Shown one piece after another: positions 15,953 through 57,156 of a stretch of 64,000 bases of DNA; the first letter of the stretch is position 1, and each line of letters starts with the position of its first letter. Origin of the DNA: Armatimonadota bacterium (GTDB lineage: Bacteria > Armatimonadota > DTGP01 > DASXUI01); contig DASXUI010000320.1 of NCBI GenBank assembly GCA_036504955.1, forward strand, positions 3,071 to 67,070. The letters are read 5' to 3'. The translations under genes were made by a program, and so were the position numbers. The notes beneath the pieces were generated by a model. It saw only the letters and a program-made list of their open reading frames with translations. It made no database searches and was not told where the DNA came from.

Positions 15953-18109
15953 CTATCGGGCCGGAACCAGGCTCCACTCTGGGCCAGTGGACGGGAGTTG
16001 CTGCAGCCCCTGAATGGCCTCGCCAGACATCAGCCACACGCCGTTTGCTCCCGTGGCGTCCTCGTGCCAAAGGATGTCGCACTTGCCATCGCCGTTGTAG
16101 TCCGCGGCACGGAGCACTCGCCAGTTCAACCCGGCTGGGGTGGTGAGTGCGTAACGCTTGGGGGAGTCCCCGTTCATGAACCAGATAGCGTTCCCACCCG
16201 ACACGCTGTTGCGCCAGAGGATGTCGCTCTTCCCGTCACCATCGAAGTCGCCCACGCCCACGGGGGTGCCCCAGGCTTGGGCGGTGGAAGGAAGTGCCGT
16301 GCCGACTGCCACCTGGGCCCCCTTCATTAGCCAAACCGCATTGGGCCCGGCGGAATGGTGCCACAGTATATCCCCTGTCCCGTCTCCGTTGAAGTCTCCA
16401 ACGCCGGCCACCTGCCACCCTAGGTCGACTGATGGCAAGGGGGCGAACTCAACGGGAACACCGGCATGCATGAACCAGACCGAGTTGCCTCCAGTCCTGC
16501 TGCTTCTCCAAAGTATGTCATCGGTTCCGTCACCATCGAAGTCTCGAATGCCTGCCACGGACCACTGGGGGTCTGCCTGGATTATTGACACGTAGGCGTC
16601 CACATTGGCCGATGCGAAGGTCCAGATCCCATTCTGGCCGGTGCTAGGATCGCGCCATAGCAGGTCAGTCATTCCCTCGCCGCTGAAGTCGCCGGTGCCA
16701 ACCAGCTTCCATGACGGGGCCGCGAGGGGTAGCGCGGCTTGGGCCACCGCGGGATGGGTCAGCCAAAGAGCAAGGGAGCCTGAGGATGGGTTCCTCCATA
16801 GGAAGTCCTCAGCTCCATCGCCGTTCATATCCAATTCTGACCAAGGACTCTTAGTAGCTGTTGGGTCTCCGTTAGCCGCGAGCCTGATGTTCAGATGGTT
16901 GGTCTCACCGTCGCTTGTGTATGCGGTCGAGTCCCCCACCCCATAGCCCTGAGCTGAGGCGCTTACGCGTAGTACGGATTCCGGCAGGCCAACGAACCTG
17001 AACCAGCCTTGATGGTCTGCCAGCCCGTGCCACTGCTGATTGGAGCCCGCGTCCGTTATGTCAATCGTCGCATCAGCAACTGCTAGTTTGCTGCTGGCGT
17101 CCATGACCTGTCCTGTCACGGTACAGGACAAGCCGTCGCCCGGTGTTAGCGCGTCCCTTCCACGAGCCGGCACCAACTCAACACTTGGTCGCAACTCTGT
17201 GGACCCTTGGGACGTGTAGGCTGAGTGGCTGGCTTGGTTATAGCCCTGGGCGGTCAGACGAGTCGAGTACAACGTGCCTGGCAACCCGGCGATCCTGAAC
17301 CATCCATCGCTGTCAGTGGTCGCATGGCCTGCCACCGCACCGGAGCGCGAGTCGACAATGACGGCCATTGCATTCGCGATGGGCGCGTCAGTCCGTTGGC
17401 TCACCAGCCTCCAGCTAATGGTAGACAGGTCATAGCCGCTGGGTGCTGATGGATCGGTGCCATGAGCGCGGTCCATCGCCTGGTCTGACTCCTTTGAAGT
17501 CATGCCCTCGGATGTGTAGATACTCGTAGAGGATTGGTTGTAGTACACTGCTGTGAAACAAGCGTGGTAGGTTACTACGGGTAGGTTGGTGAACCGGTAC
17601 CATCCGTCCGAATCCGTGAGCCCCTCGCTCACCGCGTTGTTGGTGGCGTTGTTCACAAGAACTACCTTTGCGGCTGCGATGGGTCGCTGAGTCTCGCCAT
17701 CAACGACTCGGCCCGTCGTGGTTGCTCTGTCATACCGGCTGGGGCTGAGTGACTCGGGCCCATGCGCCGGATCCATCTCGATCTGATGCATGTCCACTGT
17801 GCCGCCGCTGCGAAGGTAGGCTGTTTCGCTTGTCTGGTTGAATCCCTGAGCCGTACAGCAGACACGACAGGTCCCTGTGTAGACGACCGTGATTTGGAAT
17901 CGACCAAGCGCGTCGGTGATGCCCTGGGCGATGGAGCCAGAGTCGACGTCATATCCCACGACGTTGCACCCTGCGATGGGCTTCTTGCTGTCAGCCGTGA
18001 CCACATGCCCGGTGATGGTGGAGGTGCTCTGCGCGTTGGCCCATCCACTTGCAGCCAGGACCAGGAGTGCTATGCCAACCACATGCTGGACTGCGTACCT
18101 CTGACTCAT
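15953..18109 (-). CDS. Secreted multi-repeat protein: N-terminal signal peptide, several CarboxypepD_reg-like beta-sandwich repeats, C-terminal FG-GAP/VCBS-like repeats
   Basis: Signal peptide MSQRYAVQHVVGIALLVLAASGWANA. Repeated GxVxDxxTxxPIAxAxVxxVd...SDGWYRF motifs. Repeated DFDGDGTDDILWR, DFNGDGTGDILWH, DFDGDGKSDILWR, DYNGDGKCDILWH (FG-GAP type). Single long ORF (718 aa). Confidence 0.85.
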   Translation of the reverse strand: MSQRYAVQHVVGIALLVLAASGWANAQSTSTITGHVVTADSKKPIAGCNVVGYDVDSGSIAQGITDALGRFQITVVYTGTCRVCCTAQGFNQTSETAYLRSGGTVDMHQIEMDPAHGPESLSPSRYDRATTTGRVVDGETQRPIAAAKVVLVNNATNNAVSEGLTDSDGWYRFTNLPVVTYHACFTAVYYNQSSTSIYTSEGMTSKESDQAMDRAHGTDPSAPSGYDLSTISWRLVSQRTDAPIANAMAVIVDSRSGAVAGHATTDSDGWFRIAGLPGTLYSTRLTAQGYNQASHSAYTSQGSTELRPSVELVPARGRDALTPGDGLSCTVTGQVMDASSKLAVADATIDITDAGSNQQWHGLADHQGWFRFVGLPESVLRVSASAQGYGVGDSTAYTSDGETNHLNIRLAANGDPTATKSPWSELDMNGDGAEDFLWRNPSSGSLALWLTHPAVAQAALPLAAPSWKLVGTGDFSGEGMTDLLWRDPSTGQNGIWTFASANVDAYVSIIQADPQWSVAGIRDFDGDGTDDILWRSSRTGGNSVWFMHAGVPVEFAPLPSVDLGWQVAGVGDFNGDGTGDILWHHSAGPNAVWLMKGAQVAVGTALPSTAQAWGTPVGVGDFDGDGKSDILWRNSVSGGNAIWFMNGDSPKRYALTTPAGLNWRVLRAADYNGDGKCDILWHEDATGANGVWLMSGEAIQGLQQLPSTGPEWSLVPAR

Positions 18110-18247
18110 GCCTGCCTCCCTCTATGGCCGACTGATGACCTGGTAACAGCTTCGGCATAGAACAGGCGAGTCCTAGTACGTACCTGGTGGATAGGGGGAG
18201 GTCTGCCCGTGAACCTACACCCACGGGCAGGTAGGGGAAGGGGGATG

Positions 18248-20264
18248 CTAGCCGCGGCCTCCAGCCTGAGCCAGCTTCTTGAGTATCTGGATGACCACCT
18301 GGGACACGTCCTGAGGCCGCTGGCGAATCGCTTCCTCCGTGAAACGAAGGACGGTCCAGCCCTGAGAGGCCAGCTCCATGTCGCGTCGCCGGTCATCGGC
18401 GATCTTCTCCGGCGAGTTGTGGAAGGTGCGACTATCGGCCTCCACACCCAGCTTGAGTTGAGGGAACGCGCCGTCAAGCTGGTATTGCTGGCCGGGGCCC
18501 GCAGTGTACTGGGCATAGAAGGCGTAGGGGATGTTGAGTCCCAAGATTGTGCGGTAGAGATCTTGCTCCAGGGTGGAGAAGAGCTGCCGCATGCGGGCCT
18601 GGTCGTCGTTCTTCCCGCCCTTCGCTGCTGTGCGGGTGGCAACGCGTTGATGCGCGTGCTGGTGGTAGTCTTCGGCAATGGCGTCGGCGTTTAGCGGAAG
18701 CGCCAGGTCTCCGCCGTCCACGGGACCACCGGCCCTCAAGGGGAAGATGTCGTCCATCTCCTCGGGAAGCCGCTCCATGTCGTAACCGCGGCCCGCTGGA
18801 GGTACGAGACTCTGGAGGTAGCCTGCGTGCACAACGCTTTTCATGTGGGGTTGCTTGCCGGCGAAGCGACGGTTCAGGTCACTCGCGAAGCGCTGCTTGG
18901 CCCGTTCCTGAATCTCCTGGGCCGCAGTGATGGCCTGGCGGTAGGCGGATTCCGGGTTGTCGACACCAGCCGCCATTTGGGGCATCCCACCGGGAGCGCC
19001 ACCAGGAGGGCCTCCCATTGGAGGCATCCCAGCGGGAGCGCCACCCATGGGGGGAGGGGGAGCCATGCCGCCCATCTCCTCAGGTCCACCAGGCATGGGT
19101 GGAGCGCCGGCACCCATATCGCCGCCCGGTCCCATGGGTGCCCCTCCTCCATAGCCGCCACCAACTCCACCCATGTCCGGTGATGCGACAGCGGTAGCTG
19201 CCTGCTCGTATCGCAGTCGCTCAGCTTCCTGGTCGTAGTCGATGTCTAGGGCCTCCAGAACGGTCCGGGCCGAGATGATCCCCTGCTGGAGCCCCTGCAT
19301 CATCACCTGTAGCTTGCCGGTGTCGTCGCGGAGCTGGAGGTCGTCCCACTTGATCTTGGGGTAGACCACTTCCTCTTGGCCGAGCTTACCCGGCACCGTG
19401 AAGCCGTTCCAGATGGCGACTGGCTTGAGGACCTTCTCTTCAATCCAGTAGGCGACTTACATACGCAAACGCTCCAGGCGCTTCGCCATGGTGACCAACC
19501 CCACCTGGGCATTGGCCTTTCCGGGTCCCTCCGAGTTGAGGATCTACTTGTTGAGCATGAGACCGTCGATGGTCTCCTGCTCAATCTGCTCGAACTCATT
19601 GGTGAAGGTGAGGACCTCGCCGCTGGCCCCCACGTAGTCGAGGTTGAAAGCGAAGTGACCGGTAGTCGAGGGCCCCATGCCGGTACCCGAAGTAGGCGTC
19701 GATGGGGCCGGTGAAGACCACCCTGTTGGCCATCGCTCCAAGCTCATCCCTCTCGCTGGGGAAGTCAACCCCAAGCTGGACGTTCACTCCGGCCAGCAGC
19801 TCCTCGAGCGTCGGGGTGTAGCCGAGTGAGGGTACGCCTTCCCAGCGATCCAAGTCTGGGTAGTAGCGGTCGTTCATCGTCAGGCGGATGGGGATCCGCC
19901 GGGAGATGCTGGCGGGAAGCTCGGAAGGGGACCGGCCCCATTGCTCTCTCGTGTAGCCCTCGATGGAAGTGCGGTAGATGCCCGAGCCCGCCTGAGAGAG
20001 CGACCATCCCTCCAAGTTGCGTGGCAGAGGGTAGGTCTCACGAACTGCCCCAAGACGTTCCTCGGCCTTTTCTGGCGTGGCGACGCCCCAGAGTCGGTTG
20101 AGAGTCAGGAGGTTGATGGGGAAGGGGTTCAGCCGGTCGCCATGTCGGACCTTCACCCTGAGAGAGAAGTGGTTGAGGTCCGTCAACGGGTTGACATAGC
20201 GCCATACCCGCTCGCTGGCCGTGTGGAAGACGTGAGTGGAGCCGAACAGGCCGGCTCCCACCAC
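18248..20264 (-). pseudogene. T7-like head-to-tail connector (portal) homolog, N-terminally truncated, interrupted by one frameshift and two in-frame stops, with a C-terminal DUF559 (Vsr-like endonuclease fold) domain
   Basis: Segments IPIRLTMNDRYY, FTGPIDAYFG, SLRF-AFNLDYVGASGEVLTFTNEFEQIEQETIDGLM and a Gly/Met/Pro-rich tail resemble the T7 gp8 portal as I recall it (IPIRMVRLDGESYG, RLSFAFMLNSAVQRTGERVTAEEIRYVASELEDTLGG, G/M/A-rich C-terminus). Frameshift near 19650. In-frame TAG (~19545) and TAA (~19462). The C-terminal 120 aa (QYQLDGAFPQLKLGVEADSRTFHNSPEKIADDRRRDMELASQGWTVLRFTEEAI) matches the DUF559 signature. Confidence 0.6.
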
Positions 20265-20424
20265 CGGGTAGTCGTACTTCGGGGAGTTCGTGCCGGCCCT
20301 AGACAGCTACCAGGCTGGGATGCCCTGCCTGAGGGAGTCCTTCTCAGCGGGGAGGTCATGCCGAAGACTACAAACAGGCAACCAAGTCCGGCACGTTCGA
20401 AGGTGGCAACTGAGAGGAACTTCC

Positions 20425-21639
20425 ATGCTGATTACGAAGCGCGGTGCTCCCTTGCTACTCGTGGCGATGGTGCTGTGCCAGGCTAGATGCACTGAGGCTG
20501 CGTCAGCCGCCAAGCCCCAGGCGAAGCAGGCCAAACGCCCTCATCCACAAGCCGTGAAGCCGCTACCGCCCCAACTGATGAGCGCCAAGCAGGTCTTCGC
20601 CAAGTTCAGGGGGGCGGTGGCGACGGTCGTGGCCGACATGAAAAGCCGAGCTACCGGTGTCGTCGTGAACGGTGAACTACTTACCAGCTACCGAGCCATC
20701 GAAGGATCCCGCTCCATCGTAGCGACGTTTCCAGGCGGTACAACGGCGCGTCTGGAGGGTATCTCCCGGATCAACAGGGCCCTTGATCTCGTGGGGCTCC
20801 CAGTCTGGAGCGGCGAGGTGCTGGACAAGATCCCCCCAATAGCCCTCCTGAACCAAACGCGAGCCGTGGACCTTCCATCGGTGGGCGATCAGGTCACGGT
20901 GATCAGCAGCCCTCAAGAGGCAGACCAAACGCTTAGTGAGGGTATAGTGGCGGGCGTGCGAACTGTTGATGGCAACACCTGGTTTCAGCTCTCTATCCCG
21001 CTGACTTCAGGAACAAGCGGCAGCCCAGTGTTTGACCGCTTCGGTGATCTGATCGGCATCATCACCTCGGCGGTCAAGGCAGACCCCCCAGTGAGTTTTG
21101 CCGTGTGGATCTGGGATGTGGCGACGGCTCCTCCGTCTGTGCCCATCTCCCTCATCTTGAACACTCCCGCTGACTACGATGACGACCCTGAGATGAAAGC
21201 CTTGACCATGGAACGGAAGCTTGACCGTCTCCATAACGAACCTTCATTGATTGGCCTGCGGAACTTCGGCCTCTACGCGATTGTGTCTGAGGATGCGGAC
21301 AAGCAAGACTTCGCGCGTCGAGTGGCAGATCGCCTGAAGCAACGCGGGATCACCATAGACCCGCTACATACGGGCCCCAGAATGGCGGATATCAATGTGA
21401 CCGTAGTGCGTGAGAACACAGATGACCCAAAGGAGAAGCCAGGGGAGTTCAGCGGTTACATCGCGAGGGTGGTAGTGAGCCAGAGGGTGGCAGTCTGCAC
21501 TCCGGTCAGGACTTACCTCTCGGCTGACACTTACTTCGTGGGCAAGGGTGGGCGTGGCACCCGCCAGCAGGCTTACGATGCTGCACTAGTCCTCGTTGAC
21601 CAGTTCTGCGACGCATATCACAGGGCCAACCCGCAGTAG
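20425..21639 (+). CDS. Secreted trypsin-like (S1/Trypsin_2-fold) protein with a C-terminal extension; the catalytic His motif appears to be absent
   Basis: RBS gagagga before the ATG at 20425. Signal-like N-terminus MLITKRGAPLLLVAMVLCQA. Fold motifs GVVVNGELLTSY, DLVGLPVW, GTSGSPVF (Ser and Asp positions present). No His occurs where TNAHV is expected. The tracked ORF starts at 20290. Confidence 0.7.
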   Translation: MLITKRGAPLLLVAMVLCQARCTEAASAAKPQAKQAKRPHPQAVKPLPPQLMSAKQVFAKFRGAVATVVADMKSRATGVVVNGELLTSYRAIEGSRSIVATFPGGTTARLEGISRINRALDLVGLPVWSGEVLDKIPPIALLNQTRAVDLPSVGDQVTVISSPQEADQTLSEGIVAGVRTVDGNTWFQLSIPLTSGTSGSPVFDRFGDLIGIITSAVKADPPVSFAVWIWDVATAPPSVPISLILNTPADYDDDPEMKALTMERKLDRLHNEPSLIGLRNFGLYAIVSEDADKQDFARRVADRLKQRGITIDPLHTGPRMADINVTVVRENTDDPKEKPGEFSGYIARVVVSQRVAVCTPVRTYLSADTYFVGKGGRGTRQQAYDAALVLVDQFCDAYHRANPQ

Positions 21640-23157: not shown

Positions 23158-24800
23158 TCAGGCACTCAGAAGCACACGTCTGCGCAGAAGGTCGAACCCA
23201 GCGCGCCCGTACATCGAGCGCTTCACCAGCTTCAGCCGGTTGACCTGTCCCTCCACCGGCCCGCTGCTCCAAGGCGACCTCGCGGCTGCCTGCACTGCGG
23301 CAAGGTCTTGCTGCAGTCCCCGCACGAAGGTGGCTAGCTCAGGGATCCGGCTCTCCAAGGTCCGGGTCATCTAGCCTGCCAGGTCGTTCTCCCGCCGGCC
23401 ACCGACCAACCTCTCAAACTCCAGCACCAACTCCCGCGCCCGCGAGACTGTTCCACTGCTCTCCAGAAGTGCTCTCAGGATGTCGGCCTCCAGGGGTGTC
23501 TGGCGGCTCTTGCCCAGCAGCAGCCAGACCACCGCGCGGGGAGCCGGAGGCTGCAGGGCGGGACGCTGGCCTTCACCACGACTACGCCGCGGGAGGGCTG
23601 AGAGCGGCACGCCCAGAGACCGGGCCAGGTGGCGACGGACGGCAGAGCGAGAGCCCGTGAAGCCTTGGCTCTGAAGCTCGCGCCAGAGGTCGGTAGGGCT
23701 ACGGCAGCCGTCCTCCCACCGGCGCAGCAGGTAGACGCCGAAGGGATCCAGGGGACGCACCCGACAGGGACGAGCCGCCAACTCGGGGAAGGCTCCGGCC
23801 TCTGGGTATTTACGGACCCTCCTTCGAGAGAGTCCCAGTTGGTGAGCGACCCCGTGTTGGCTCAGCCCCTGTTGCTGGAGCCCAACCACCGCTTGTAGCG
23901 GGCTAAGCGCCGGGCCCGACGGGAGGCGCTCTCTCGTCCCTCCGCCGTGGGACGCGTGGCCATCCGCGAGCACTCTGCCGCTGGGGAGGCTCGGGAAGGG
24001 GCTGGCTCCTCGGGCCCCTGCACACTCCGAGCGGCCCCATGGACCTGTGCTTGCTGATGAACCACTACCTTCTCCAAGCTATCGGTCAGATTCTTAAGTA
24101 GGTGCCAGCGGCCCGCCACCTGCAGGGCTTCGGGTGCTCCCTGATCGGCCCCCTGAGCCTAGGCACCTCCGCGGTCTCGGCTGACCACCTCAACCCCTGG
24201 GTGCTCCCCCAGCCAATGGGCCAGCCCCCCGGCGCTCCGGCCCGGCAGCAGATCTACCACCTTGCCGCGCTCCAGGTCGCACAGGATCGTGCCCCAGCGT
24301 CGGCCCTTGCGCCAAGCCCAGTCCTCCACCACCAGCACACGGACGGGTGCCAGCGGTGATAGGGGCAGCCTGTGGACCAGGCGCAATAGGGCAGACTGAC
24401 TCGTCCTCAGCCCCAGGGCCACAGCCAGCCGAGAGCCGGCCTTGCCGCCCAGCGCCAAGCTCACCCGTGGCTGCGCCGCTACCAGGCGATGACTCCGCCG
24501 TCCATAGGCTGAGGTCAGACTCTCTAGCCGCTCACAGAACAGCTTGCGGGGACACCGGCGGGCCTGGCAGACGGGCGGCGCGCCTGAATCAGCAGCTTCC
24601 CCGTGCGGCCCGCGCAGGGAAGGTCGGCCACCTGGCGACGTTAGCTGCTATAGATGCGGTGGGAGGGCCGGCGGCACAGGGGACACCGGGCGGCCCGACC
24701 TTGAGGTAACAGGACCAGGACCACCCGCTCCTCCTGGAAACTCACCTCCTCGATGTGGGAGTTACGTAGGTCCAACAGGGCAGCCAGCGTCGGCATGGGG
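23158..24800 (-). pseudogene. ISL3-family transposase, decayed (three in-frame stops and a frameshift)
   Basis: N-terminal zinc-finger region (CPLCRRPSH..., RRCPRKLFCERL). HTH and DDE start (LGLRTSQSALLRLV, VVEDWAWRKGRRWGTILCDLERGKVVDLLPGRSA, VVSRDRGGA). Then QVAGRWHLLKNLTD. C-terminal SGPVEGQVNRLKLVKRSMYGRAGFDLLRRRVL. In-frame TAA after the zinc finger, TAG after RDRGGA, TAG before MTRTLESRIPE, and a +1 frameshift near 24560. Confidence 0.75.
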
Positions 24801-29649: not shown

Positions 29650-29949
29650 CGTTGTCTCCTTTCAAGCATGGGACTTCCGGTACTCCCAGTGTTCAGCTCT
29701 AGTAGGCGCTCCTCCTCTGACCTCATGCCGTGATACCCTTGCGCATACCTACCTCGGGCTCACCTGGTCGTCTAGCCTAGCCCACCTCACTTCCACTCAC
29801 TTCCGTCTCTCCCCAACATACCTCCAGACCACAAGTCCGCGGAGTCGAGGCGGCTTCTCCAGGGGAGGGCCTCATTTCCGCGAAATACCCGCCGTTCAAT
29901 GTCTCCCCCGACTTACCAACCTACGAGCATCCTCAGCAGGATCACATCA

Positions 29950-31880
29950 CATCCCATGGCCTGGTGAGCTACTAGGGGGTATTTCGAGGAATACCGGTGC
30001 TCCCAGCCTGCCAGCGACCTGCCTATGAGGTGTCAGTGGGTGCCTCTGGGCCTGTACTAAGGTGACGTTGGGCTGCTTGTGTGTTACCCTAGAGGAAGGG
30101 CCGAGAAGGGCCTTCCCTAAGAGTGCTATGCGGCCAGGCTGCGAGCCCCTTGCGGCCAAGCACGCCTGGGTGGTGTAGCTGGCAGTGCCAGCACCCAGGG
30201 CCCACCGGTGGGCGAAGACCGAGAGGGGGAGTCCGAGGAGGTCGGTCCCGGCCTCCCCTGCCGGGCCACCCAGTTCCAGGTCCAGCGTAGGTTCGCCAGC
30301 GTGGCCGCCAGGAGGGCTTGGCACAGGCTCTTGGCTCTCCCTCGGTACCGAGCTTGCCCCACCCCCAGAGCCCCCAGCCGGGCCAGTCCGTGCTCCACCA
30401 CCACTCGGTCGCTCAGCACCGCTTGTCCCTCCGGCGTCTGCTGGTAGGCTCGGGCGGCTTGGAGCAGCGCCTCCTGAGGATGCACCCGCACCTGGCGGCC
30501 CACCGCCGAGGCCGTGCATTGATTCCTCAGAGGGCAGCCTCCACAAGCGACTCCAAACTGGTAGAGGCGCCCTCCCTCTCCTTCCTTGACGAAGGTCCGC
30601 GTGGTCTGGCCCGCCGGACGGGTCACCGACTCGTCCTCCAGGTCTACTCTGAAGGCACTCTTGGGGAAGCGACCTCCCGGTCGGCTCTCCCGAGGCGCTC
30701 GAACGACCAGCTCTCGACCCGCCCCTGAAGGCCTGCCGGGTGGCTCCGCCGCCGTAGGCTCCGTCTCCCACCACTTGCTCCACCGCTTGCCCGGTAGTCT
30801 CCTCGACCCGCTCGATCGCCTCCAGCACCCCTTGAGCGTCTCCCGCGTTGCCCGGCAACAGCGCGCAGTCCAGAATGAGCTGGCTCTCCCGGTCCACGAC
30901 GACCGCCACCTTGTGTCCCGTGAAGCGCTTGTGGGCGCTCTTGTGGCCGTGGCGCTGTTCGGGATCGCTCACCGAGGGGATTCGGTCGGGGGCGGTGCCC
31001 TGCTTCAACTGAGCCCTCGGCCCTCCCTCGGGAGGTTCCTGCCACTCCACGTCCTGGAGCAGAAGCTGACTCAGCAGCTCGCAGGCCTCCTTCACCCGCT
31101 CCCGCTGGTTCTCTCCCACGAAGCTGGCCCAGTGCAACAGCCGTCGGGCGTCTGCCACGATCTCGGTCAGGAAGGCTTCCCGAGCCTGGGGATCCGACCA
31201 GTCCAGCTCCGCGCTGCCCTTCAGGCTGGGCCCGAAGTAGCGCCCCAATCCCTGCCGGGCGACCCAGGCCTCCAGCTTCTCCCCGCTGGCCTTGGCCAGC
31301 GCCCGGGTCACCTGCTGGATGCCCGCGGCCAAGAGGTTGTAGGTGTCCTCCACCGCGCCCTTCCCCAGCATCGGCTTGGTATCGACGGCGACCTTGAGCT
31401 TCCCGCCCTTCAGCAGGCCGGCCCGCCTTGCTTCCTGGAGGCTCCCCTCGAAGAGCTGCCGCACCCCCTCATGAAGGATCAGATGAGAGCGGAAGAGCTG
31501 CAGAGTGCTCTTGGCACACAAGGGGGCTCCCGCGTGTCGGTTCAAGACAGCGGCCCAGCGTAGGTCGAAGCCGCTGCGCTCTACCGCCTCCTCGTCGGAG
31601 CAGCCCGCCTGTTGTTGCAGCAGAAGCATTAGGGCCAGTTGAGAGGGAGGTACGCTGGGACGACCCACGCGCTCGGAGTAGCAGGCCAGGAAGGCCTCTT
31701 CCCGGAAGAGCCGGGGCGCGGCCTGGGCGAGCTGTCCGTGGAAGCTCCCCTCCGGCAACTCCAAAGGCCACACGTTTCCGACATTAAAGAGACTGACTTG
31801 CTTCTTGCGCCGACCCAGCATCCACTGACCTCCTGGGGTCCATCCTCAGGAAGGAATTCCACCAGCCAAACAAGGAACCC
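29950..31880 (-). mobile_element. IS1182-like (IS5 superfamily) insertion sequence with frameshifted transposase (boundaries approximate)
   Basis: Transposase ORFs 31821..~30650 and 30626..30126 in different frames. Motifs DPEQRHGHKSAHKRFTGHKVAVVVDRESQLILDCALLPGNAGDAQ (DDE) and C-terminal CGGCPLRNQCT...ARYRGRAKS are typical of IS1182-type transposases. Confidence 0.7.
30126..31821 (-). pseudogene. IS1182-family transposase, frameshifted
   Basis: After ~410 good residues the N-terminal 624-aa ORF runs into low-complexity junk (SRAGRSSASGEPTGRS...). The true C-terminal region continues in ORF 30626..30126. Confidence 0.7.
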
Positions 31881-37642: not shown

Positions 37643-38452
37643 TCAGACGGACGCGGACGGCGAGTCCGCCGGGCCGGTCGAGGGAACGTCTAGGGGTACA
37701 CCCGCGCGTTTGCGCTCCCTCAGCCGGTAGCTCTCCCCGCGGATGTGAACCACCGTGCAGCGGTGCAGCAACCGGTCCAGCGCGGCGGCAGCCATGACCG
37801 CGTCCCCCGCGGAGATCTCACCCCACTCCCCAAAGGCTTTGTTGGAGGTCAGGATGACCGACTGGCTCCGCTCATACCGATGGCACAGCGCCTGGAAGAG
37901 CAGCGACGCCTGGGTGTTGTCCAGGGTCAGGTAGCCTACCTCATCGAGGATCAGCACCTTGGGCTGCAGAAGCTTCCTCATCTCCCGGTGCAGCCGGTTC
38001 TCTGAAAACGCCAGGGAGAGCTTGCGGGCCAGCTCGATGGCCGAGGTGAAGTAGGCCCGGTGGCCGCGCTCACAGGCCAGGAGGCCCAACCCCAGCGCCA
38101 GGTGGGTCTTCCCGACGCCGGGCGCACCGAGGAAGACCAGGTTGCGGCCCTCATAGAGGAAGCGCAAGGTGGAGAGTTCCTCGATGAGGCGACGATCCAG
38201 CGAGGGTAGGGCCTCGAAATCGAAGTCGGCCAGCCGCTTGAGCAGGGGGAAGCGAGCGAACTTGAGGTTGAACTCTACGCTTCGTCGATGGCGTTCCTGG
38301 ACCTCAGCGTCCAGCAGGTAGCCCAGGAAGGCGCTGTAGCTCCAAGACTCCGCCGCCGCCCGCTGGCAAGCGCCATCGAGACGTTCCTGCACCCCCTTGA
38401 GTCCCAGCTTCTCCAGGGCGGCCTGGGCCTGCTCTTCGAGGAGAGGGGTCAC
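37643..38452 (-). CDS. istB: IS21 IstB ATPase helper
   Basis: GTG start at VTPLLEEQ. Walker A NLVFLGAPGVGKTHLALGLG, Walker B LLILDEVGYL, C-terminal SVILTSNKAFGEWGEI. The tracked ORF (to 38956) carries a spurious 168-aa low-complexity N-terminal extension. Confidence 0.8.
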   Translation of the reverse strand: MTPLLEEQAQAALEKLGLKGVQERLDGACQRAAAESWSYSAFLGYLLDAEVQERHRRSVEFNLKFARFPLLKRLADFDFEALPSLDRRLIEELSTLRFLYEGRNLVFLGAPGVGKTHLALGLGLLACERGHRAYFTSAIELARKLSLAFSENRLHREMRKLLQPKVLILDEVGYLTLDNTQASLLFQALCHRYERSQSVILTSNKAFGEWGEISAGDAVMAAAALDRLLHRCTVVHIRGESYRLRERKRAGVPLDVPSTGPADSPSASV

Positions 38453-38541
38453 GAGACCAACTCCTCGTAGTGGCTCAGGGGTGGCACGGTCACGGCCTCC
38501 GCCGCCGTCCACTGCAGCGCGGGCTGAGGCGGTGGGCTCTT

Positions 38542-39619
38542 CTAGAGGGTCTGCTGCCACAGAGCGGTGACGTGCTCGGCGGTGGCCACCGAGGCACCGG
38601 GAGCGCCGCGAGGGTGCTCGGCGAGGACCAGGTCCCCCAGCTTGACCTGGACCCGCTGCTCCTGCTGCACGACGACCACGGGCTGGCCCACGTACTGGGG
38701 CGGCACCGAGTAGCGCACACTGGCCAGGTGGACGAAGCCCTCGGCGTCCGCCCGGCGGGAGTGGCGCAGACAGAGCAAGTAGGGCGGGATCTCCGAGAGG
38801 GGGGACAGGCCCTCCCGAGGCAGCAGATCCAGGGGCCGCTCCCCGGTGGTGGCGTGAACGCGGCGGTTGGCTTGCTCTAGCCAGAGACGGCCCTGCTGGC
38901 TCAGGTCCTGAAGGCCCGCGAAGGAGCGGCCTCGCAGGAAGTTGTCTTTGAGGCAATCCACCCTCCGCTCCACCTTGCCCTTGGTGCGGGGCCGGTAAGG
39001 GCGGTGGGTACGCACGGCGAAGCCGTAGTGGGCGGAGAAGTCAGCGAAGAGGGGGTGCAAACCGCCCTGGGGTCGCTTCACCTGGGCCGTGTTGTGATAG
39101 AGGAGGGTGCTGGGCACCCCGCCCAGGAAGCTGAAGGCCCGCTGATGGCAGGTGATGAGGGTAGGCAGATCCATGGAGCGGGTGAACTCCAGGTAGAGCA
39201 GCCGGGAGAAGGAGAGGACTAGCACGAAGGCGTAGAGCTTGCCCTCTTCATCGGCCCCTATGTAGGCCCAGTCCACCTGGGCCTGGTGGCCTGGCGCGGT
39301 CTCGAAGCGCACGGTGGCTTTCCTCAGGTCCTGCTGCTACCGCATGGCCTCCATGGGCCGCTGGGCCAAGTCCACGGAGCCTGCGCAGCCCTGAGATCGA
39401 GGTCTGACCAGGAGCCGGGCGTCGGACAGCTCCCAGGCTTCGAGGCCCTTTTTCAGGTAGGGCTTGAGGGATCTGGACAGCTCGTGCGCCGAGGCTTCGG
39501 AGGGGCCGAGGCACCGTCTCCCGTAGCGCTCTGGCGACCGTGACGCGAGGGTAGCCGGTCCTTCGGGCAATCTCGCGTTACGAAAGTCGCTGGCGGAGTA
39601 GCCCCTTGATGTCCGGCAT
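38542..39619 (-). pseudogene. istA: IS21 IstA transposase, decayed (in-frame TAA, TAG and at least one frameshift)
   Basis: MPDIKGLLRQRLS*REIARRTGYPRVTVARALRE, with TAA at the conserved SQREIAR position. Frameshift, then ...AQRPMEAMR*QQDLRKATVRFETAPGHQAQVDWAY, with TAG where Q is expected. The DDE region is intact in ORF 39312..38542. Confidence 0.75.
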
Positions 39620-43052: not shown

Positions 43053-43274
43053 ATGCCCATGACCCGCTCGATCCCGCCCCCGCCTCTGGGGCTCCACTCT
43101 GGGGACCCCAGGCTGGGGGAGCAGCCGGAGAGCCCTCCGGTCTGCCTGCCGCCCCACCAAGTGTGGGCCACTCTCCAGCCCTTTCAGCGCCAGCGGGTGC
43201 TGCAGGCTCTCACCCGAGTGTGCCGAGCCCTGCTGACCCCCCAATCCCCGGAGGAGACCGATGAGCGCCTCTGA
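43053..43274 (+). CDS. Small protein translationally coupled to the serine recombinase (candidate accessory/directionality factor)
   Basis: GC3 about 80%. Its stop overlaps the recombinase ATG (43261). Pro-rich N-terminus then a helical VWATLQPFQRQRVLQALTRVCRALL. Start codon uncertain (43026/43053/43062). Confidence 0.35.
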   Translation: MPMTRSIPPPPLGLHSGDPRLGEQPESPPVCLPPHQVWATLQPFQRQRVLQALTRVCRALLTPQSPEETDERL

Positions 43275-45378
43275 CCCGTCCCTCGTGCCGCTGCCCGGCG
43301 CTCAGAAGGTGACCCCTCGCCATCGTCAGGGCTTGGCTTGCGTCTATGTCCGCCAATCCTGCCTCAAGCAGGTGGAGAACAACCGGGAGAGCCAGATCAA
43401 CCAGTACCGTCTGGCGGAGAAGGCCCAGGCTCTGGGCTGGCCTCCCGAGCAGGTACGCGTCATCGATAGCGACCTGGGCCTCTCCGCTCAGAGCAGCGAC
43501 GATCGCTCGGGCTTCAAGGAACTGGTGGCCGAGGTCTCCCTGGGCCATGTCGGGTTGGTCCTGGGCTACGAGGTCTCCCGCTTGGCCCGCAACAACAGCG
43601 ACTGGTACCATCTTCTGGACCTGGCCGCCGTCTTCGGCACCCTCATCGCCGATAGCGACGGTCTCTACGACCCTCGCTCCTACAATGACCGACTCCTGCT
43701 GGGGCTGAAGGGCACCATGAGCGAAGCCGAACTTCACCTGCTGCGCCAGCGCTTGGACGCGGGCCGCCTCACCCAGGTCCAGCGCAACGCCTACCGACAG
43801 CAGCTCCCCACGGGGCTGGAGCGGCGGCTCGATGGCACGGTGGTGAAGGATCCCGATGACCAGGTGCGGCACACCTTGGAGCTGGTCTTCGAGAAGTTCG
43901 AGGAGCTGGGCACCGCCCACGCGGTGATGCGCTACCTTCGCCAGGCCGAGATCCGGCTGCCCCGGCGGCAGCGCTGTGGGCCACAGCGCGGGGAGGTGCT
44001 CTGGAAGGTGGCCGCCGATTGGGCGGTCCGGGACATCCTGCGCAACCCCGCCTACGCCGGAGCCTTCGCCTATGGGCGGCGACAACTCGAACCCAGTCGG
44101 TTGCAGCCCGGCTTCCGGGCTACCGGGCGGTTGGCTCGCCCCGAGGAGGAGTGGCTGCATCTGGCTCAGGGGATCTACCCGGCCTACCTCTCCTGGGAGC
44201 AGTTCGAGGCCAACCAGGAACGGCTCCGAGCCAACAGCACCTTGAGCTGGGCCGCGACTCAGGAAGGGGCAGGACCGGTACGCGAGGGAGCTGCCCTGCT
44301 GCAGGGCTTGGTCTTCTGCGGCGCTTGCGGGCGGCGAATGCGCACGGTCTACCGCGGCGCCACCTACCGCTACGCTTGCGAGGCCTTGGCCAAGGAGCGA
44401 GACCTACCACGCTGCGGGTCGCTGTTGGGGCCTGCCCTGGACGAGAGGGTGGCCGAAGCCTTCCTGGCCGTGCTGCAGCCCGCGCAACTGAGCGCGCTGG
44501 AAGCCCTGTTGGCGGACCAGCAGCAGGAGCGCGAACGGCTCAGCCGCCACTGGGAGGAGCGGCTGAAGCGGGAGCGCTACGAAGCCGGACTGGCAGAGCG
44601 ACAGTACCGGGCGGTAGACCCGGAGAACCGTCTGGTGGCCGCCGAGCTGGAACGACGCTGGGAGGAGACGCTGCGCCGCCTTCAGGCCACCCAGCAGGAG
44701 TACGAGCGCTTTCGGCGCACGCTGGAGGTGCCCCAACTCAGCGAAGAGCAGAAGCAGCTTTTCGCCGAGATCTCGACTCGGCTACCGGGGCTGTGGGAGA
44801 GCGGTGAGCTGAGCCCCCCCCAGAAGAAGGAGTTGCTACGGAGCCTGGTGGACCGGGTGGTGGCCCGGCGGTGGGATTCGGGTACGGTGGAGCTGAGGAT
44901 CCTGTGGGTTTCGGGCCACTACACCGAGACCGTGGTCCGCCACTCCGTGACCCGATTGGTGGATGTGGCCGACTACGACCGGCTGGTCCTCCGGGTGGAG
45001 GCGCTGTGGCGAGAGGGACTGACGGATGAGGCGATCGCGGCGCGTCTCACCGAGGAAGGGCTGCGCTCAGCGCGCTCCCGGCGAATCCCGGCCCAGACCA
45101 TCCAGCAGCTTCGGCTAGAGCGGGGCTGGTATCAGAGGCTGCACCGCAGCCGAGGAGCCGATGAGGTGGAGGGCTACCTGACGGTGCGAGGGCTGGCCGT
45201 GCGGCTGGGAGTCAGGCGGGGTTGGGTCTACCGCTGGCTAGCGAGAAACCCGCTGCAGGAACGCTGGGTTCTAGGACATCCGAAAGGCGGTCTCTACCTG
45301 ATCCGGGCTGACGAGGAACTCCTCGCCCAACTACGTCGGTGCTTACCGGGGAAACCGGGTAGGCCAAAGGGGCATTGA
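43261..45378 (+). CDS. Large serine recombinase (resolvase/invertase N-domain + recombinase domain + zinc ribbon + coiled coil)
   Basis: Catalytic-Ser region ACVYVRQSCLKQ...QINQYR. Resolvase-domain motifs VSLGHVGLVLGYEVSRLARNNSDWYHLLDL. Zinc ribbon CGACGRRMRTVYRGATYRYAC...PRCGS. Long C-terminal coiled coil. 705 aa. Confidence 0.9.
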   Translation: MSASDPSLVPLPGAQKVTPRHRQGLACVYVRQSCLKQVENNRESQINQYRLAEKAQALGWPPEQVRVIDSDLGLSAQSSDDRSGFKELVAEVSLGHVGLVLGYEVSRLARNNSDWYHLLDLAAVFGTLIADSDGLYDPRSYNDRLLLGLKGTMSEAELHLLRQRLDAGRLTQVQRNAYRQQLPTGLERRLDGTVVKDPDDQVRHTLELVFEKFEELGTAHAVMRYLRQAEIRLPRRQRCGPQRGEVLWKVAADWAVRDILRNPAYAGAFAYGRRQLEPSRLQPGFRATGRLARPEEEWLHLAQGIYPAYLSWEQFEANQERLRANSTLSWAATQEGAGPVREGAALLQGLVFCGACGRRMRTVYRGATYRYACEALAKERDLPRCGSLLGPALDERVAEAFLAVLQPAQLSALEALLADQQQERERLSRHWEERLKRERYEAGLAERQYRAVDPENRLVAAELERRWEETLRRLQATQQEYERFRRTLEVPQLSEEQKQLFAEISTRLPGLWESGELSPPQKKELLRSLVDRVVARRWDSGTVELRILWVSGHYTETVVRHSVTRLVDVADYDRLVLRVEALWREGLTDEAIAARLTEEGLRSARSRRIPAQTIQQLRLERGWYQRLHRSRGADEVEGYLTVRGLAVRLGVRRGWVYRWLARNPLQERWVLGHPKGGLYLIRADEELLAQLRRCLPGKPGRPKGH

Positions 45379-45389
45379 GATGGCTGAGC

Positions 45390-45725
45390 TTTGCCCACGC
45401 CGGTCGGTCCGTAGAGCAGCCAGTTCTCCTGTCGGGCGATGAACTCACAGCTCGCCTGGCGCAGAACGAAGGCCCGGTCCAGGGTAGGCAAGGCGGCGAA
45501 GTCGAACTGGCTGAGGCGCTTGGGGCGCTCGAAGCCGGCTTCTCGCTCTCGGCGCTCCAAGACGTGCTGATGACGCCGGTCGATCTCGTCCTCGAGCAGC
45601 AGAGCGAGGAACTCCAGCGGGGAGAGCTGCTGACTCTGAGCCAACTCCACCCGTGCGTTGAGGGTGTTCAGCATCCCCGAGAGCTTCAGCTCCTTGAGCT
45701 TGGGGGCCAGGGGATGAGTCAGCAT
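45390..45725 (-). pseudogene. istB: istB N-terminal fragment of IS21 copy 2 (through Walker A GPTGVGK)
   Basis: MLTHPLAPKLKELKLSGMLNTLNARVELAQ...FDFAALPTLDRAFVLRQASCEFIARQENWLLYGPTGVGK, after which the frame runs into the inserted element. Confidence 0.75.
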
Positions 45726-47260
45726 GAGGGGGCCTCCGGGCCGAAGAACTCCTCAGGCTGCCGAGCATGGGCGTAGGTCCGAGGAGTCGCGGGGACCGCC
45801 TTCCCTTCCTCGGCGAGGGGTTCGCTGTCGAGGCCCGCGGCCAGGATGGCCTTGACCCGCCGGTAATGCGGGTCGCCGTAGTGCAGGGCTCGGGCGCAGG
45901 CCGCCTCCAGGCGCTCCCGACCCACCCGAGCCTCCAGCCCCACCAGGCTCTGCACCGCCCTCAGGTGGTCGGCGGGAGACTGAGCCAGGAGGTAGACCAC
46001 TAATAGATGACAAGAGGGGCCGACTTGCTGAGCGCGCTCCTGGCAGACTTCGGGCGTACGCTCCAGGTAGAGGGCCTTCTCCTTGGGGTAGTGCTCCAGG
46101 CGGGTGAAGCGCTCGCCGGGGCTTTGGGCTCGGGGATGGGTGATCACTAGCTCCGTGCCTCGGTAGAGCTGGAGGGTGTGCTCGTAGAGGTGGGCTTCCA
46201 GGGTCTGGCCCACCAGGGCGTGGGGCACCGAGTAGAAGCTGCCCTCCAGCACCACGTGGCAGTCCCGGTGCACCCGCACCTCGCGGACCGCCTCGAGCTG
46301 GAAGGGCTCGGGGGGGAGAGGTGCCAGGGCCTCCCGCTCCCGCTGGAAGCGGGCCAGGGGCGCTTCGTGAGTGGTGCCGTGGTCCCTTACGCCAGCGACC
46401 TCCCGCACCCAGACTCGCACCCGCTGGTTGGCGTCGGCGAGATCCACGAAGGAAGCCCCCGCCAGAAAGTTCCGCTGCAGGTAGCGGACGCCGTTCTCCA
46501 CCTTGCCCTTGTGCTGGGGGGTACGAGGGCGGCAGGGATGCAGCAGGAAGCCGTAGTGCTGGGCCATCTGGCGGTAAGGAGTGGAGAAGACCGGGTCCTC
46601 CAGAGCATGCTGGAGCACCCCGGCCTTCAGGTTGTCCAGGACGATCTCTTGAGGCGTGCCCTCGAAGCTCTCGAAGGCCCGGCGGTGGCAACCGATCCAG
46701 GTGGGCAGGGACTGGTCGAAGACGAACTCGACGTACTGATGCCGAGAATAGCTCAGGGTCATCAGGAAGGCGTAGGCGGGGCGTAGCTTGCCGGTGCCCG
46801 GGTCCTTCAGCTTCCCGACCGCGGTGAAGTCCACCTGGGCCTGGCGTCCGGGAGACGTCTCCAGGCGCACGGTGGCCTGGGGGCTCGGAGGGCGAAGATG
46901 CCGCACGAAGCGCCGTACCGAGGAGTAGCTTCCTGGGTAGCCGTGGTGCTGGACCAGTCGCTGGTGCATGGCGCTCTGCTCCACCCCTAAGCGCAGCCAC
47001 TCCTCGATCAGCGCTTGGTAGGGCTCTACGCTGGAGGGGCAGCGCGGAGGGGGAGCGGGCGGCCCCAGGTGGGCCAGCAGCAGGTCGGGAGGCGGCAAGG
47101 GCGTCCCAGGCTCCAGGAAGCCCTTCCCTCGGGCCAACTCATGGTAGCGGCGGACGGTCATACGGGAGTGTCCCAGGTCGCGGGCGATGGCCCGCTCGGA
47201 TTGCCCCTGTCGCAGGCGGTAGACGATGTCTTGGATGAGCTGCATGGGTAGTCGCTCCAT
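45719..47260 (-). CDS. istA: IS21 IstA transposase (intact, 513 aa)
   Basis: N-terminal HTH (IQDIVYRLRQGQSERAIARDLGHSRMTVRRY), second HTH (LVQHHGYPGSYSSVRRFV), DDE region (GRQAQVDFT...). Overlaps the istB start by 7 nt. Confidence 0.85.
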   Translation of the reverse strand: MERLPMQLIQDIVYRLRQGQSERAIARDLGHSRMTVRRYHELARGKGFLEPGTPLPPPDLLLAHLGPPAPPPRCPSSVEPYQALIEEWLRLGVEQSAMHQRLVQHHGYPGSYSSVRRFVRHLRPPSPQATVRLETSPGRQAQVDFTAVGKLKDPGTGKLRPAYAFLMTLSYSRHQYVEFVFDQSLPTWIGCHRRAFESFEGTPQEIVLDNLKAGVLQHALEDPVFSTPYRQMAQHYGFLLHPCRPRTPQHKGKVENGVRYLQRNFLAGASFVDLADANQRVRVWVREVAGVRDHGTTHEAPLARFQREREALAPLPPEPFQLEAVREVRVHRDCHVVLEGSFYSVPHALVGQTLEAHLYEHTLQLYRGTELVITHPRAQSPGERFTRLEHYPKEKALYLERTPEVCQERAQQVGPSCHLLVVYLLAQSPADHLRAVQSLVGLEARVGRERLEAACARALHYGDPHYRRVKAILAAGLDSEPLAEEGKAVPATPRTYAHARQPEEFFGPEAPSC

Positions 47261-53316: not shown

Positions 53317-54315
53317 TCAGGCATTAACTCCGAGCTGGCAGGACGGCATCTGCTGTCGTACTAGCGCCCAATCCTCGGGCGTTAGCCGGTCGCGTCCCCT
53401 AGCTATGAGGCGGGAGACGTAAGCCTCGCCCTCGACCAGAGCCACTAAGGCCAGGGGGCGAGCGTTCTTCTCAGTCCATGCCCTTGTCTTCATGTAGTCG
53501 CGTACTCGCGGGGCGGTGTCGAGCCTTGACTTGGCCACCCTACCAAGAAACACGTCCCAGTTCTCCCAGGTACGCCACCTAGACTTCTGCTTGTTCGCGC
53601 CAGGCTCCTTGAAGTCAATGTACGACTTCAGGACGCCTGCCATTCCAGCCATTCCCTCCTCACAGATTCGATTGGCAGCCAGTTGTGCTGCTCTGTGCTT
53701 CAGTTCGAACTCCACTCGAATCCATGGGCCAGGCGTGTCAGTCTGGACTGCCTTGTCATAGATACGTAGGTATCTCTGCCCCTTGCGGCTTCCAAAGGAC
53801 TCCCCGTAGCTCACCTGCTCCCCATCGGCTGTGTTGCAGCCATGTGGAAGGTACGAAAGACCATTCCTGGCCCGGCAGACGTAGTAGCCCTGGCGTATGC
53901 GGCGCTGGATGTCCTGCATACTGAGGATGCCACAGTGGTCATCGACAGCCACATCAATCCGCTTCATGGAGGCGTTACTAGCCAAGAGGAGGCCGAGGAA
54001 CTCGCGCCACGTGTGACCGGGGGCATCGTCGGTGCCTTCGTTCCTAATGACTCCGATGCGCTCCAACTCACGGCATCCGCGACCGCTTAGCAGTAAGTAC
54101 GGTTCGCATGACTTCCGCTTGGTAAACCTGAAGATAGTTCCTGGCCTAGAGGCTCCGTACTGATGGTATCTCAGGTTCCTGGTGCCTATGAGGCTAAGAA
54201 GCTCGGAATGGTCAGAACCTTCTGGAAACCCCACCTTTAGGTAGTCGATGCATATCTGCGATGCACTTTGCAATTGTGTATTACTAAGGGAGCATCCGTC
54301 CATATTACCGTTCAT
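53317..54315 (-). CDS. Rep_trans-family rolling-circle replication initiator
   Basis: GSRKGQRYLRIYDKAVQTD and WIRVEFELKHRAAQ match the Rep_trans YxRiYDK...RvElElr signature. 332 aa. Confidence 0.65.
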   Translation of the reverse strand: MNGNMDGCSLSNTQLQSASQICIDYLKVGFPEGSDHSELLSLIGTRNLRYHQYGASRPGTIFRFTKRKSCEPYLLLSGRGCRELERIGVIRNEGTDDAPGHTWREFLGLLLASNASMKRIDVAVDDHCGILSMQDIQRRIRQGYYVCRARNGLSYLPHGCNTADGEQVSYGESFGSRKGQRYLRIYDKAVQTDTPGPWIRVEFELKHRAAQLAANRICEEGMAGMAGVLKSYIDFKEPGANKQKSRWRTWENWDVFLGRVAKSRLDTAPRVRDYMKTRAWTEKNARPLALVALVEGEAYVSRLIARGRDRLTPEDWALVRQQMPSCQLGVNA

Positions 54316-56010: not shown

Positions 56011-57156
56011 ATGGGTAGGAGACGGGGGCACAATGAGGGGTCAGTCCACTATCGCCATGACCGCGACCGCTGGGTTGCGGAGCTGACAGTGGAAGATGGG
56101 CGGCGCAGGCAGTTCTACTGCAAGACAGAGAAGGAAGCAAGAACCAAGCTCATCTCGGTGCTTGGCGATCTTCAAAGGGGGATGCTACCTTCAGGCCGCC
56201 AGCAGTCGGTGAAGGCCTTCCTTGAGCACTGGATCGAGAACGTTGCCAAACAGCAGGTTCGGCCCAAGACGTGGGACCGCTATAGCGGACAACTGAAGAA
56301 GCACATCGTTCCGGCTCTGGGCCGAAAGCAGCTAGGCAAGCTGTCCGCCCAGGACCTCCAAGTCTTCTATAATCGAAAGATATCTGAGGGCCTGGCGCCA
56401 CGCTCCGTTGTGCACATGCATCGTGTGCTCCACAAGGCTCTCGGAGAGGCTGTCAGGCTTGACCTCATCTCCCGAAACCCCTGTGCTCTCGTAAAGCCCC
56501 CGAAGGTATCTCAGTCACCGATCCGCTTCCTGACCGCAGAGGAGGCCAAAACACTCCTCGCGGCGGCCCAAGACGACCCTCTTGAGGCCCTCTATGTGCT
56601 GGCTCTGACCACCGGTATGCGCCAGGGAGAGCTGCTGGGGCTTAGGTGGGACTGTGTTGACCTGGATGGCCTGGCCGTCCATGTGCGCAGAACGGTCTAC
56701 TGGAGGCAGGGGCACGGCTTCGTCTGGTCCGAACCCAAGAGCAAGGCAAGCCAGCGTCGGGTTTCGCTTACAGAGGTGGCGGCGTCGACACTCCGACACC
56801 ACCGCGAACGGCAATCAACTTCCAGGCTGCTCGCTGGAGACGCCTGGTGTGAGCAAGGGCTCGTCTTCCCCAATAGCGTGGGGAACCCGATCAACGCCAA
56901 CAACCTACTGAATCGGTCTTTCAAGCCGCTGCTGGAGAGGGCGGGCCTCCCGAAGGTGCGTTTCCATGACCTCCGGCATTCGGCTGCGAGTCTGCTGCTG
57001 TCCCTAGGAACTCATCCGAAGATCGTGCAGGAGTTGCTTGGGCATAGCAGTATCAGTGTCACGCTTGATATCTACTCGCACGCGATCCCAACCCTCCAAG
57101 ACCAGGCTGTTAGCCAACTTGCAGACCTTCTGGGTCGGGGGCAAGGTTCAGCCTAG
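56011..57156 (+). CDS. int: Tyrosine integrase (phage integrase family)
   Basis: SAM-like core-binding region (VKAFLEHWIENVAKQQVRPKTWDRY). Catalytic motifs RFHDLRHSAAS, LLGHSSISVTLDIYSH (R..H..R..Y). Ends 98 bp from the tRNA 3' end. Confidence 0.9.
   Translation: MGRRRGHNEGSVHYRHDRDRWVAELTVEDGRRRQFYCKTEKEARTKLISVLGDLQRGMLPSGRQQSVKAFLEHWIENVAKQQVRPKTWDRYSGQLKKHIVPALGRKQLGKLSAQDLQVFYNRKISEGLAPRSVVHMHRVLHKALGEAVRLDLISRNPCALVKPPKVSQSPIRFLTAEEAKTLLAAAQDDPLEALYVLALTTGMRQGELLGLRWDCVDLDGLAVHVRRTVYWRQGHGFVWSEPKSKASQRRVSLTEVAASTLRHHRERQSTSRLLAGDAWCEQGLVFPNSVGNPINANNLLNRSFKPLLERAGLPKVRFHDLRHSAASLLLSLGTHPKIVQELLGHSSISVTLDIYSHAIPTLQDQAVSQLADLLGRGQGSA

Follow-up and report, generated by a model that had tools for sequence, protein, structure and literature searches.

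The crown, wing and stem of the phage portal lie inside the capsid (PMC9958956). Effector domains (RNase, PBECR, 2H and InPase) occur fused to portal or MuF proteins and have been interpreted as packaged and injected (PMC5512222); MuF polymorphic toxins often carry nucleases, for which packaging and injection have also been proposed (PMC5576092). PMC9958956 cites Golz & Kemper (1999) for an association of endonuclease VII (gp49) with the portal gp20 in phage T4. Here we describe a relic in which portal sequence continues into a nuclease domain of the DUF559 family, located in a 64-kb stretch of contig DASXUI010000320.1 (the whole stretch is referred to as the window) from an Armatimonadota metagenome-assembled genome. 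Six-frame translation of 18100–20500 delimits the relic to 18248–20279 (2.04 kb, minus strand) and resolves it into two reading frames and three components: the 5'-part of glf (UDP-galactopyranose mutase), a C-terminal portal fragment and the nuclease domain. With a probability of roughly 0.8, it is a single fragment, carrying an internal deletion, of a phage-G-like large tailed phage formerly in this Armatimonadota chromosome.

Composition of the relic

The elements of the relic, in the order in which they are read, are as follows.

19647–20279, minus strand: relic of the 5'-part of glf (Pfam PF03275; BLASTP with the homologue P0122)
19646–19657, minus strand: junction of glf and portal sequence (three-frame translation of 19590–19726)
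19202–19660, minus strand: C-terminal portal fragment comprising the end of the wing and the crown, about residues 341–495 of about 790 (PHROG, tblastn and alignment A1)
18248–19396, minus strand: longest surviving open reading frame (ORF), 382 aa from GTG 19396, downstream of the second in-frame stop
18974–19168, minus strand: low-complexity linker rich in Gly, Met and Pro, predicted to be disordered [predicted local distance difference test (pLDDT) < 50, ORF residues 77–141]
18611–18961, minus strand: helical module between linker and nuclease, with the family motif VTGRG
18251–18598, minus strand: DUF559/Vsr-like PD-(D/E)xK nuclease domain, ending at the stop codon TAG 18248–18250

The first frame runs from about 20279 down to 19647 (KYDYPVVGAGLFG...RRIPIRLT...VVFTGPIDAYFGYRHGALDYRSLRF) and is recognized by the GLF profile PF03275 (E = 4.9e-31, 108.5 bits against a cut-off of 26.3, profile positions 3–109 of 203). 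Its nearest intact homologue, P0122, is 51% identical by BLASTP with a single gap of 40 residues; an in-frame deletion of 40 aa at about 20235–20240 has removed residues 16–55, in the region that binds flavin adenine dinucleotide (FAD). The homology ends after ...LDYRSLRF, at about residue 250 of 363, and there is no start codon between the upstream stop at 20307–20309 and the conserved N-terminus. Neither an intact FAD-binding N-terminus nor a full GLF domain is present, and NCBI annotates 19596–20264 as a 222-aa 'UDP-galactopyranose mutase' (HEY3283002.1). An earlier reading made from the letters of the DNA (the sequence-only reading) had taken the whole interval for portal; about one-third of the feature (19647–20279) is instead glf in another frame, and the string IPIR, which had been cited as a portal motif, is part of RIPIRL of glf.

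The second frame extends from 19660 down to the TAG at 18248–18250 and begins GHFAFNLDYVGASGEVLTF.... At the junction twelve nucleotides, CACTTCGCTTTC, can be read both ways, as (S)LRF of glf in one frame and as HFAF of the portal in the other. Portal homology starts at HFAFxxDYVGASG, the family consensus being THHAFDxxxVGASG. As judged from the sequence, the twelve-nucleotide overlap is likely a microhomology of illegitimate recombination or deletion. The 'portal motif' LRFAFNLD of the sequence-only reading splices the two frames together, ...YRSLRF belonging to glf and HFAFNLDYVGASG (HFAFNLD) to the portal. That reading had also listed a frameshift, a TAG and a TAA as inactivating lesions; both stops are real, whereas the frameshift is the junction of two genes. 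It is this junction that truncates the portal, and not the divergent protease gene, whose likely ATG (20425) lies beyond it.

The portal frame matches two PHROG profiles (phrog_16240 'portal protein', E = 1.1e-8, profile positions 331–430 of 643; phrog_533, E = 0.0028), and in tblastn with intact homologues the window positions 19657–18260 align with residues 341–779 of a 788-aa protein (48.7% identity, E = 3e-121). Residues 1 to about 340 are missing and the portal part contains two in-frame stops (TAG 19544–19546 and TAA 19457–19459), so that the complete clip, stem, wing and crown needed for a dodecamer are not encoded. With the PHROG match, the two stops and a start at about residue 341, an inactivated and N-terminally truncated phage portal relic, as originally proposed, is upheld; what is kept (from about 341 of about 790 residues) is the final third of the portal core, less than the C-terminal two-thirds of the protein that had been proposed.

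In the same frame, and again as originally proposed, portal sequence passes without a stop through the Gly/Met-rich stretch into the DUF559/Vsr-fold domain; the profile search that had been suggested for the latter returns both PF04480 (36.4–38.4 bits, cut-off 20.6) and PF18741 (36.4 bits). The linker varies in length and sequence, yet is present in 21 of 21 aligned family members. Profile matches of the nuclease domain in the PDB are 3hrl (2.1e-8) and 3r3p, I-Bth0305I (1.3e-5). The invariant columns of DUF559 in alignments of 22 and of 90 sequences are E277, Q296, D308, A310, E319, D321, H326, D335, D339, G346, W347 and R351 (ORF numbering), all of which the window keeps. Among them are the residues of catalytic type, D308 (18473–75), E319 (18440–42), D321 (18434–36) and H326 (18419–21); these conserved acidic and His residues, together with D335 and D339, align with 3HRL.

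An AlphaFold model of the 382-aa ORF, computed with 90 homologues, has a mean pLDDT of 78.5 and a predicted template modelling score of 0.72. It places crown helices first, followed by the disordered linker (residues 77–141), the helical module (148–258) and the nuclease (275–380, pLDDT > 90). The helical module (helices 148–178, 188–196 and 237–258, pLDDT 76–95) is conserved in the closer subfamily and has neither a PDB match by Foldseek nor a Pfam match. With the nuclease, Foldseek finds the catalytic domain of I-Bth0305I [target-normalized template modelling (TM) score 0.81–0.83, root-mean-square deviation 2.7–3.0 Å] and NGO0050 (0.78), and also lists Vsr (1CW0/1VSR). The domain in the window is predicted to have a Vsr-type fold.

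An assembly artefact as the source of the chimera is rejected, since an independent Logan assembly (L116, SRR11794808) matches the whole feature with 100% identity over 4,847 bp.

The intact portal–DUF559 family

A cluster search with the conceptual translation as query identifies at least 140 protein clusters, mostly of 780–800 aa, that combine PF06074 (Portal_Mu), PF04480 and PF18741; the matches cover 98–100% of the fragment at 45–52% identity. By a pattern scan of IMG/VR, 275 viral contigs encode relatives, and in the best 80 of these most include the DUF559 end and eight are 296–488 kb long. A few family members are without the DUF559 domain. Pairwise identities of the portal core and of DUF559 are correlated (Pearson r = 0.86, 210 pairs), and the portal and DUF559 parts of the window have the same nearest relatives. 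Because of the intact homologues and this co-divergence, it is excluded that decay brought a separate DUF559 pseudogene into frame, and DUF559 is not a recent mobile insertion either. The intact fusions for which the sequence-only reading had recommended a search in phages thus exist, and in place of the recent mobile-domain insertion that it had considered there is a fusion that is old and vertically inherited. On the sequences compared, a large clade of uncultivated phages has the portal–DUF559 fusion as its native architecture, and decay did not produce it.

Two called genes, P0101 and P0104 (L198 4389–6783, JAWVHC010001365.1), encode a portal of 522 aa and a DUF559 protein of 260 aa. As an example of naturally split genes they were rejected; a frameshift lies within the Gly-rich linker, and it is either a sequencing error in low-complexity DNA or a real mutation.

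That the domain is a selfish insertion of the homing-endonuclease type in the portal gene, and no functional part of the virion, is very improbable. Its profile and structural matches to the catalytic domain of I-Bth0305I speak for such an origin, free-standing DUF559 proteins are frequent in phages, the few members without the domain would fit, and ancient descent from a neighbouring homing-endonuclease gene is plausible. However, the domain has a constant place in the protein across the great majority of members, where it has co-diverged with the portal core, is joined by a conserved middle module and keeps catalytic residues that are invariant in 90 sequences. It has no intron or intein location and its distribution is not sporadic, and it does not qualify as a homing endonuclease.

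Full-length homologues match Portal_Mu with 35.9 bits (cut-off 23.9). In the deposited phage genomes, gp14 of Bacillus phage G matches best (28% identity, E = 2e-60, residues 37–496 of P0002), followed by an uncultured 485-kb phage and by large actinobacteriophages (Mycobacterium, Gordonia and Rhodococcus). Coverage of the query does not exceed 80% in any matching deposited record, so that none of these has a complete portal–DUF559 fusion. Of the solved portals, YonE of SPbeta comes closest in the profile comparison, as a weak match (E = 0.018). The sequence-only reading had called the portal podovirus-type and T7-gp8-like; neither the fragment nor the full-length P0001, P0002 and P0036 have a Pfam match to Head-tail_con (T7 gp8) at E <= 1, and a T7-gp8 podovirus portal is rejected on this lack of profile support, the family being Portal_Mu.

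In the locus L004 the portal is followed by a 1,428-aa protein with a prohead-protease N-terminus (phrog_18299, 1.3e-20) and, three genes past that protein, by the major head protein (phrog_2522, 4.3e-69). The same order of head-module genes is found in L001–L004 and in one ENA contig. Head-morphogenesis genes such as these, for a prohead protease and a major capsid protein, accompany the portal in the homologues' loci and are absent from the window. Because of the Portal_Mu domain, the match to phage G and the order of the head module, the intact gene is assigned as a genuine portal gene, from a lineage that is phage-G-like and consists mostly of huge phages.

Two features of the family deserve mention in their own right. 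The gene 3' of the portal (L004 12513–16799; L002, L003 and the ENA contig) encodes about 1,420 aa, of which the first 240 or so match phrog_18299 and the other 1,200 or so are without a match. Within the portal core (A1 columns 217–236; residues ~170–195 of P0002) there is a nearly invariant C-x2-C-x-G ... C-x-H motif, possibly a zinc-binding insertion, which to our knowledge is not known in characterized portals.

Among 185,579 species genomes the sole chromosomal full-length copy is that of the Armatimonadota genome SZAS-3 (contig JAFDWS010000002.1, 1.36 Mb). Its portal (L002/L091) was called as 659 aa; it is really a full-length protein of 784 aa in one frame and lies within the usual module. 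Because the only chromosomal copy is in another Armatimonadota genome, it ties the closest subclade to Armatimonadota hosts. We know of no well-characterized phages of Armatimonadota. At 135–157 kb of the same contig, a colinear head-module block (2390-aa protein, DUF192, ..., portal–DUF559, 1410-aa protein, ...) adjoins an IS605 TnpB, and this block may be a very large prophage.

Origin and fate of the relic

From the intact relatives, the original order of genes would be glf, 7–12 kb of tail and head genes, portal–DUF559, the giant protease-domain protein, two genes and the major head protein. An illegitimate deletion would then have joined the middle of glf to about codon 341 of the portal gene, using a microhomology of about 7–12 nt at 19646–19657, and would have taken everything between the two genes; the phage flanks would have been lost too. 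By later decay glf would have lost 40 aa and its start codon, and the portal part would have gained the two nonsense mutations.

The evidence for one fragment lies in gene order. In 11 phage loci (L009, L010, L019, L021, L035, L036, L042, L055, L056, L058/L140 and L001) glf and the portal share a strand and glf lies 7.3–11.5 kb upstream of the position equivalent to the breakpoint; these pairs sit deep within viral contigs of up to 379 kb (L140 and L058 are one 379-kb phage contig, whose portal lies just outside the flank). Because glf and portal in the window keep the strand and order of these 11 loci, a single fragment is favoured as the source of both halves. The three nearest placed glf homologues (P0122, P0127 and P0124) are on contigs that encode phage tail or baseplate proteins (Dit, gp25-like or Laminin_G_3); among the matches listed, the nearest metagenomic glf loci have no portal within 10 kb.

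Five huge-phage contigs (L089, L090, L019, L036 and L140) carry glf along with glycosyltransferase, UDP-glucose dehydrogenase and epimerase genes, which suggests phage-encoded galactofuranose and polysaccharide metabolism.

Several observations weigh against a single phage fragment. The glf of the window is only 33–39% identical to the portal-linked phage copies, compared with 43–57% to assorted others, some of them from named bacteria, and the case for a phage origin of glf is one of synteny and context and not of phylogeny. Within the related loci glf is in reach of the portal in only about 11 of about 85, and the contigs with the nearest glf (L088–L090) have no other gene in common with the four portal loci tested. 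As to the route of entry into the chromosome, att sites, flanking repeats and an adjoining integrase were looked for around the relic and nothing convincing was found. The GC content of the relic (63.5%) equals that of the host (window average 63.7%), whereas sampled relatives (L001–L052) have 35–54%; the donor phage lineage appears to be unsampled.

Some of these points suit a different history, in which glf belonged to the host, the gene was interrupted by a phage fragment or by a prophage that was later deleted, and the junction is the insertion boundary. glf is common in bacteria, the relic has the GC content of the host, and the higher identities are to glfs other than the portal-linked phage copies, although, given the two ranges of identity, identity alone does not separate a phage glf from a host one. 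A host gene is nevertheless rather unlikely: its 3' half is nowhere in the 64-kb window (tblastn), the agreement in strand and order with 11 phage loci would be a coincidence, and all three of the nearest glf homologues examined are on phage-like contigs. The flanks of the relic, moreover, hold a trypsin-like peptidase and an FG-GAP surface protein, without polysaccharide-synthesis genes. These flanking genes and the further landmarks of the window are given below.

From a likely ATG at 20425, about 145 bp past the 5' end of glf: trypsin-like peptidase, flanking gene
Other gene flanking the relic: CarboxypepD_reg/FG-GAP surface protein
53320–54315, minus strand: Rep_trans replication initiator
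56011–57153, plus strand: tyrosine integrase (Phage_integrase and SAM-like domains), directly adjoining tRNA-Thr
57265–57337, minus strand: tRNA-Thr(CGT), the sole tRNA, 37 kb from the relic

The single phage fragment that we favour has left no companions in the window. A tblastn search with 4,539 ORF translations from within 10 kb on either side of 87 related loci found no other prophage genes there, as expected from the sequence-only reading, which had described the relic as isolated from other phage structural genes. The neighbouring protease, used as a query for an empty site or an intact prophage, has no relatives in the metagenome collection.

The window is otherwise rich in mobile DNA. 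An island comprises a fragmented ISL3 transposase remnant, an IS5-type transposase (DUF772 and DDE_Tnp_1), IstB_IS21, a transposase with rve and Mu-transpos_C_2 domains and a large serine recombinase; mobile-element genes sit at 23161–24119, 29947–31821, 37646–38956 and 43261–47260. Few long ORFs are present at 4–13 kb and 21–30 kb, which suggests further pseudogenes. The integrase, tRNA-Thr and Rep_trans initiator together resemble an integrative element inserted at tRNA-Thr.

As it stands, the relic cannot act as a portal or as a mutase and is an ordinary fossil, a chimera of two pseudogene halves; the sequence-only reading had likewise called the portal gene a fossil. Few positions conserved in the family have changed, 4 of 42 highly conserved ones in the C-terminal part of the portal (one of them a stop) and 0 of 23 in DUF559, and intact members vary over a range that includes both values; in the portal part 3' of the second stop, 1 of 20 is altered. 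Because of this small number of changes, either the relic would be young or the surviving ORF would still be under selection.

That the host has kept the ORF as a free-standing nuclease (in defence, for instance), read as 382 aa from GTG 19396 or as 242 aa from ATG 18976, is worth weighing, improbable as we consider it. Both stops fall within the first 68 of 470 codons and the next 402 are open, for which the random chance is about 2%; no highly conserved DUF559 position has changed, and the model has pLDDT > 90 over the nuclease domain. NCBI and IMG both call a gene, as both do for the glf half, the former as a stand-alone 'DUF559 domain-containing protein' (HEY3283001.1) and the latter as the 242-aa version (JGI P0242), and hosts may redeploy remnants of phage polyvalent proteins (PMC5512222). 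Yet no convincing ribosome-binding site lies upstream of either start, and a scan of 18000–20600 gives no promoter-like or terminator-like sites. Portal sequence past the second stop is as well preserved as the nuclease, which a young relic explains equally well, and the other two assemblies are identical, so there is no diverged copy from which a ratio of non-synonymous to synonymous substitutions could be obtained.

Proposed function and comparison with known systems

The relic has no functional consequence except in public annotation, where its halves are shown as 'UDP-galactopyranose mutase' and 'DUF559 domain-containing protein'. It is a clean example of how microhomology deletions yield chimeric reading frames that resemble exotic fusions. 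It is also a pointer to a phage clade linked to Armatimonadota hosts and to an abundant, apparently undescribed architecture in which a portal core is followed by a disordered linker of 60–100 aa, a helical module and a Vsr-fold nuclease.

From the position of the crown, the intact protein would tether twelve nuclease domains in the head interior beside the DNA. The nuclease may be a packaged effector that would cut host or competitor DNA after release by the neighbouring prohead protease and/or delivery together with the phage DNA; alternatively, it could be a portal-bound nuclease that processes DNA during packaging. A role in DNA processing or external proofreading at the portal is topologically hard, because the nuclease domain faces the capsid interior. 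If the nuclease is active, twelve copies beside the genome in the capsid would raise questions about packaged effectors, anti-defence and genome-end processing. Certain points count against a tethered nuclease of this kind: it is a proposal that we infer by analogy, no small immunity-like ORF is found 3' of the portal–DUF559 gene, and portals are normally not ejected. We consider it improbable that both halves of the boldest account apply, namely a huge-phage clade, so far sampled in several hundred metagenomic contigs, with twelve capsid-tethered Vsr-fold nucleases as an undescribed packaged DNA cutter, and a host-kept working ORF at 18248–19396.

The domain itself has close bacterial counterparts. 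DUF559 (PF04480; NGO0050, 3HRL) and Vsr (1VSR/1CW0) share its profile and fold, and its acidic and His residues align with 3HRL. NGO0050 and Vsr, however, are stand-alone bacterial proteins, whereas here the domain forms the C-terminus of a portal behind a long disordered linker. The best structural match, I-Bth0305I (3R3P), is likewise phage-encoded (Bacillus phage 0305phi8-36). I-Bth0305I, a group I intron product, is selfish, and its PDB deposition carries the name 'mobile intron protein', whereas the portal-fused domain is vertically inherited and without intron context.

T4 endonuclease VII resembles the fusion in being a nuclease of DNA structures coupled to the portal of a large myovirus; the coupling is non-covalent in T4 and covalent here. 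For the T4 association, removal of branched DNA while the genome is packaged has reportedly been proposed. The 648-aa gp14 of phage G is homologous to the family in its portal core, also belongs to a large genome and has a tail that is likewise rich in Gly and Pro, but it ends at this low-complexity tail, without the helical module or DUF559.

No published description of a portal–DUF559 or portal–Vsr fusion was found in the open-access full texts searched. The terms 'DUF559' and 'Vsr' are absent from the main text of PMC5512222, a check that did not extend to PMC5576092. The statement in the sequence-only reading that such a fusion is not known as described holds in so far as DUF559 was not found among the described domains, and fails for the general principle, enzymatic domains on portal and MuF proteins having been described (PMC5512222). 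Like those effectors, the intact family carries a C-terminal enzymatic domain on a protein of the head module; the intact homologues have this architecture and the window relic does not. Pfam finds no MuF domain in the fragment or in the full-length homologues, and the portal–DUF559 family occurs on huge-phage contigs rather than in typical temperate siphoviruses. By analogy, the intact family fits the theme of portal and MuF effectors, with a fusion that is itself apparently undescribed.

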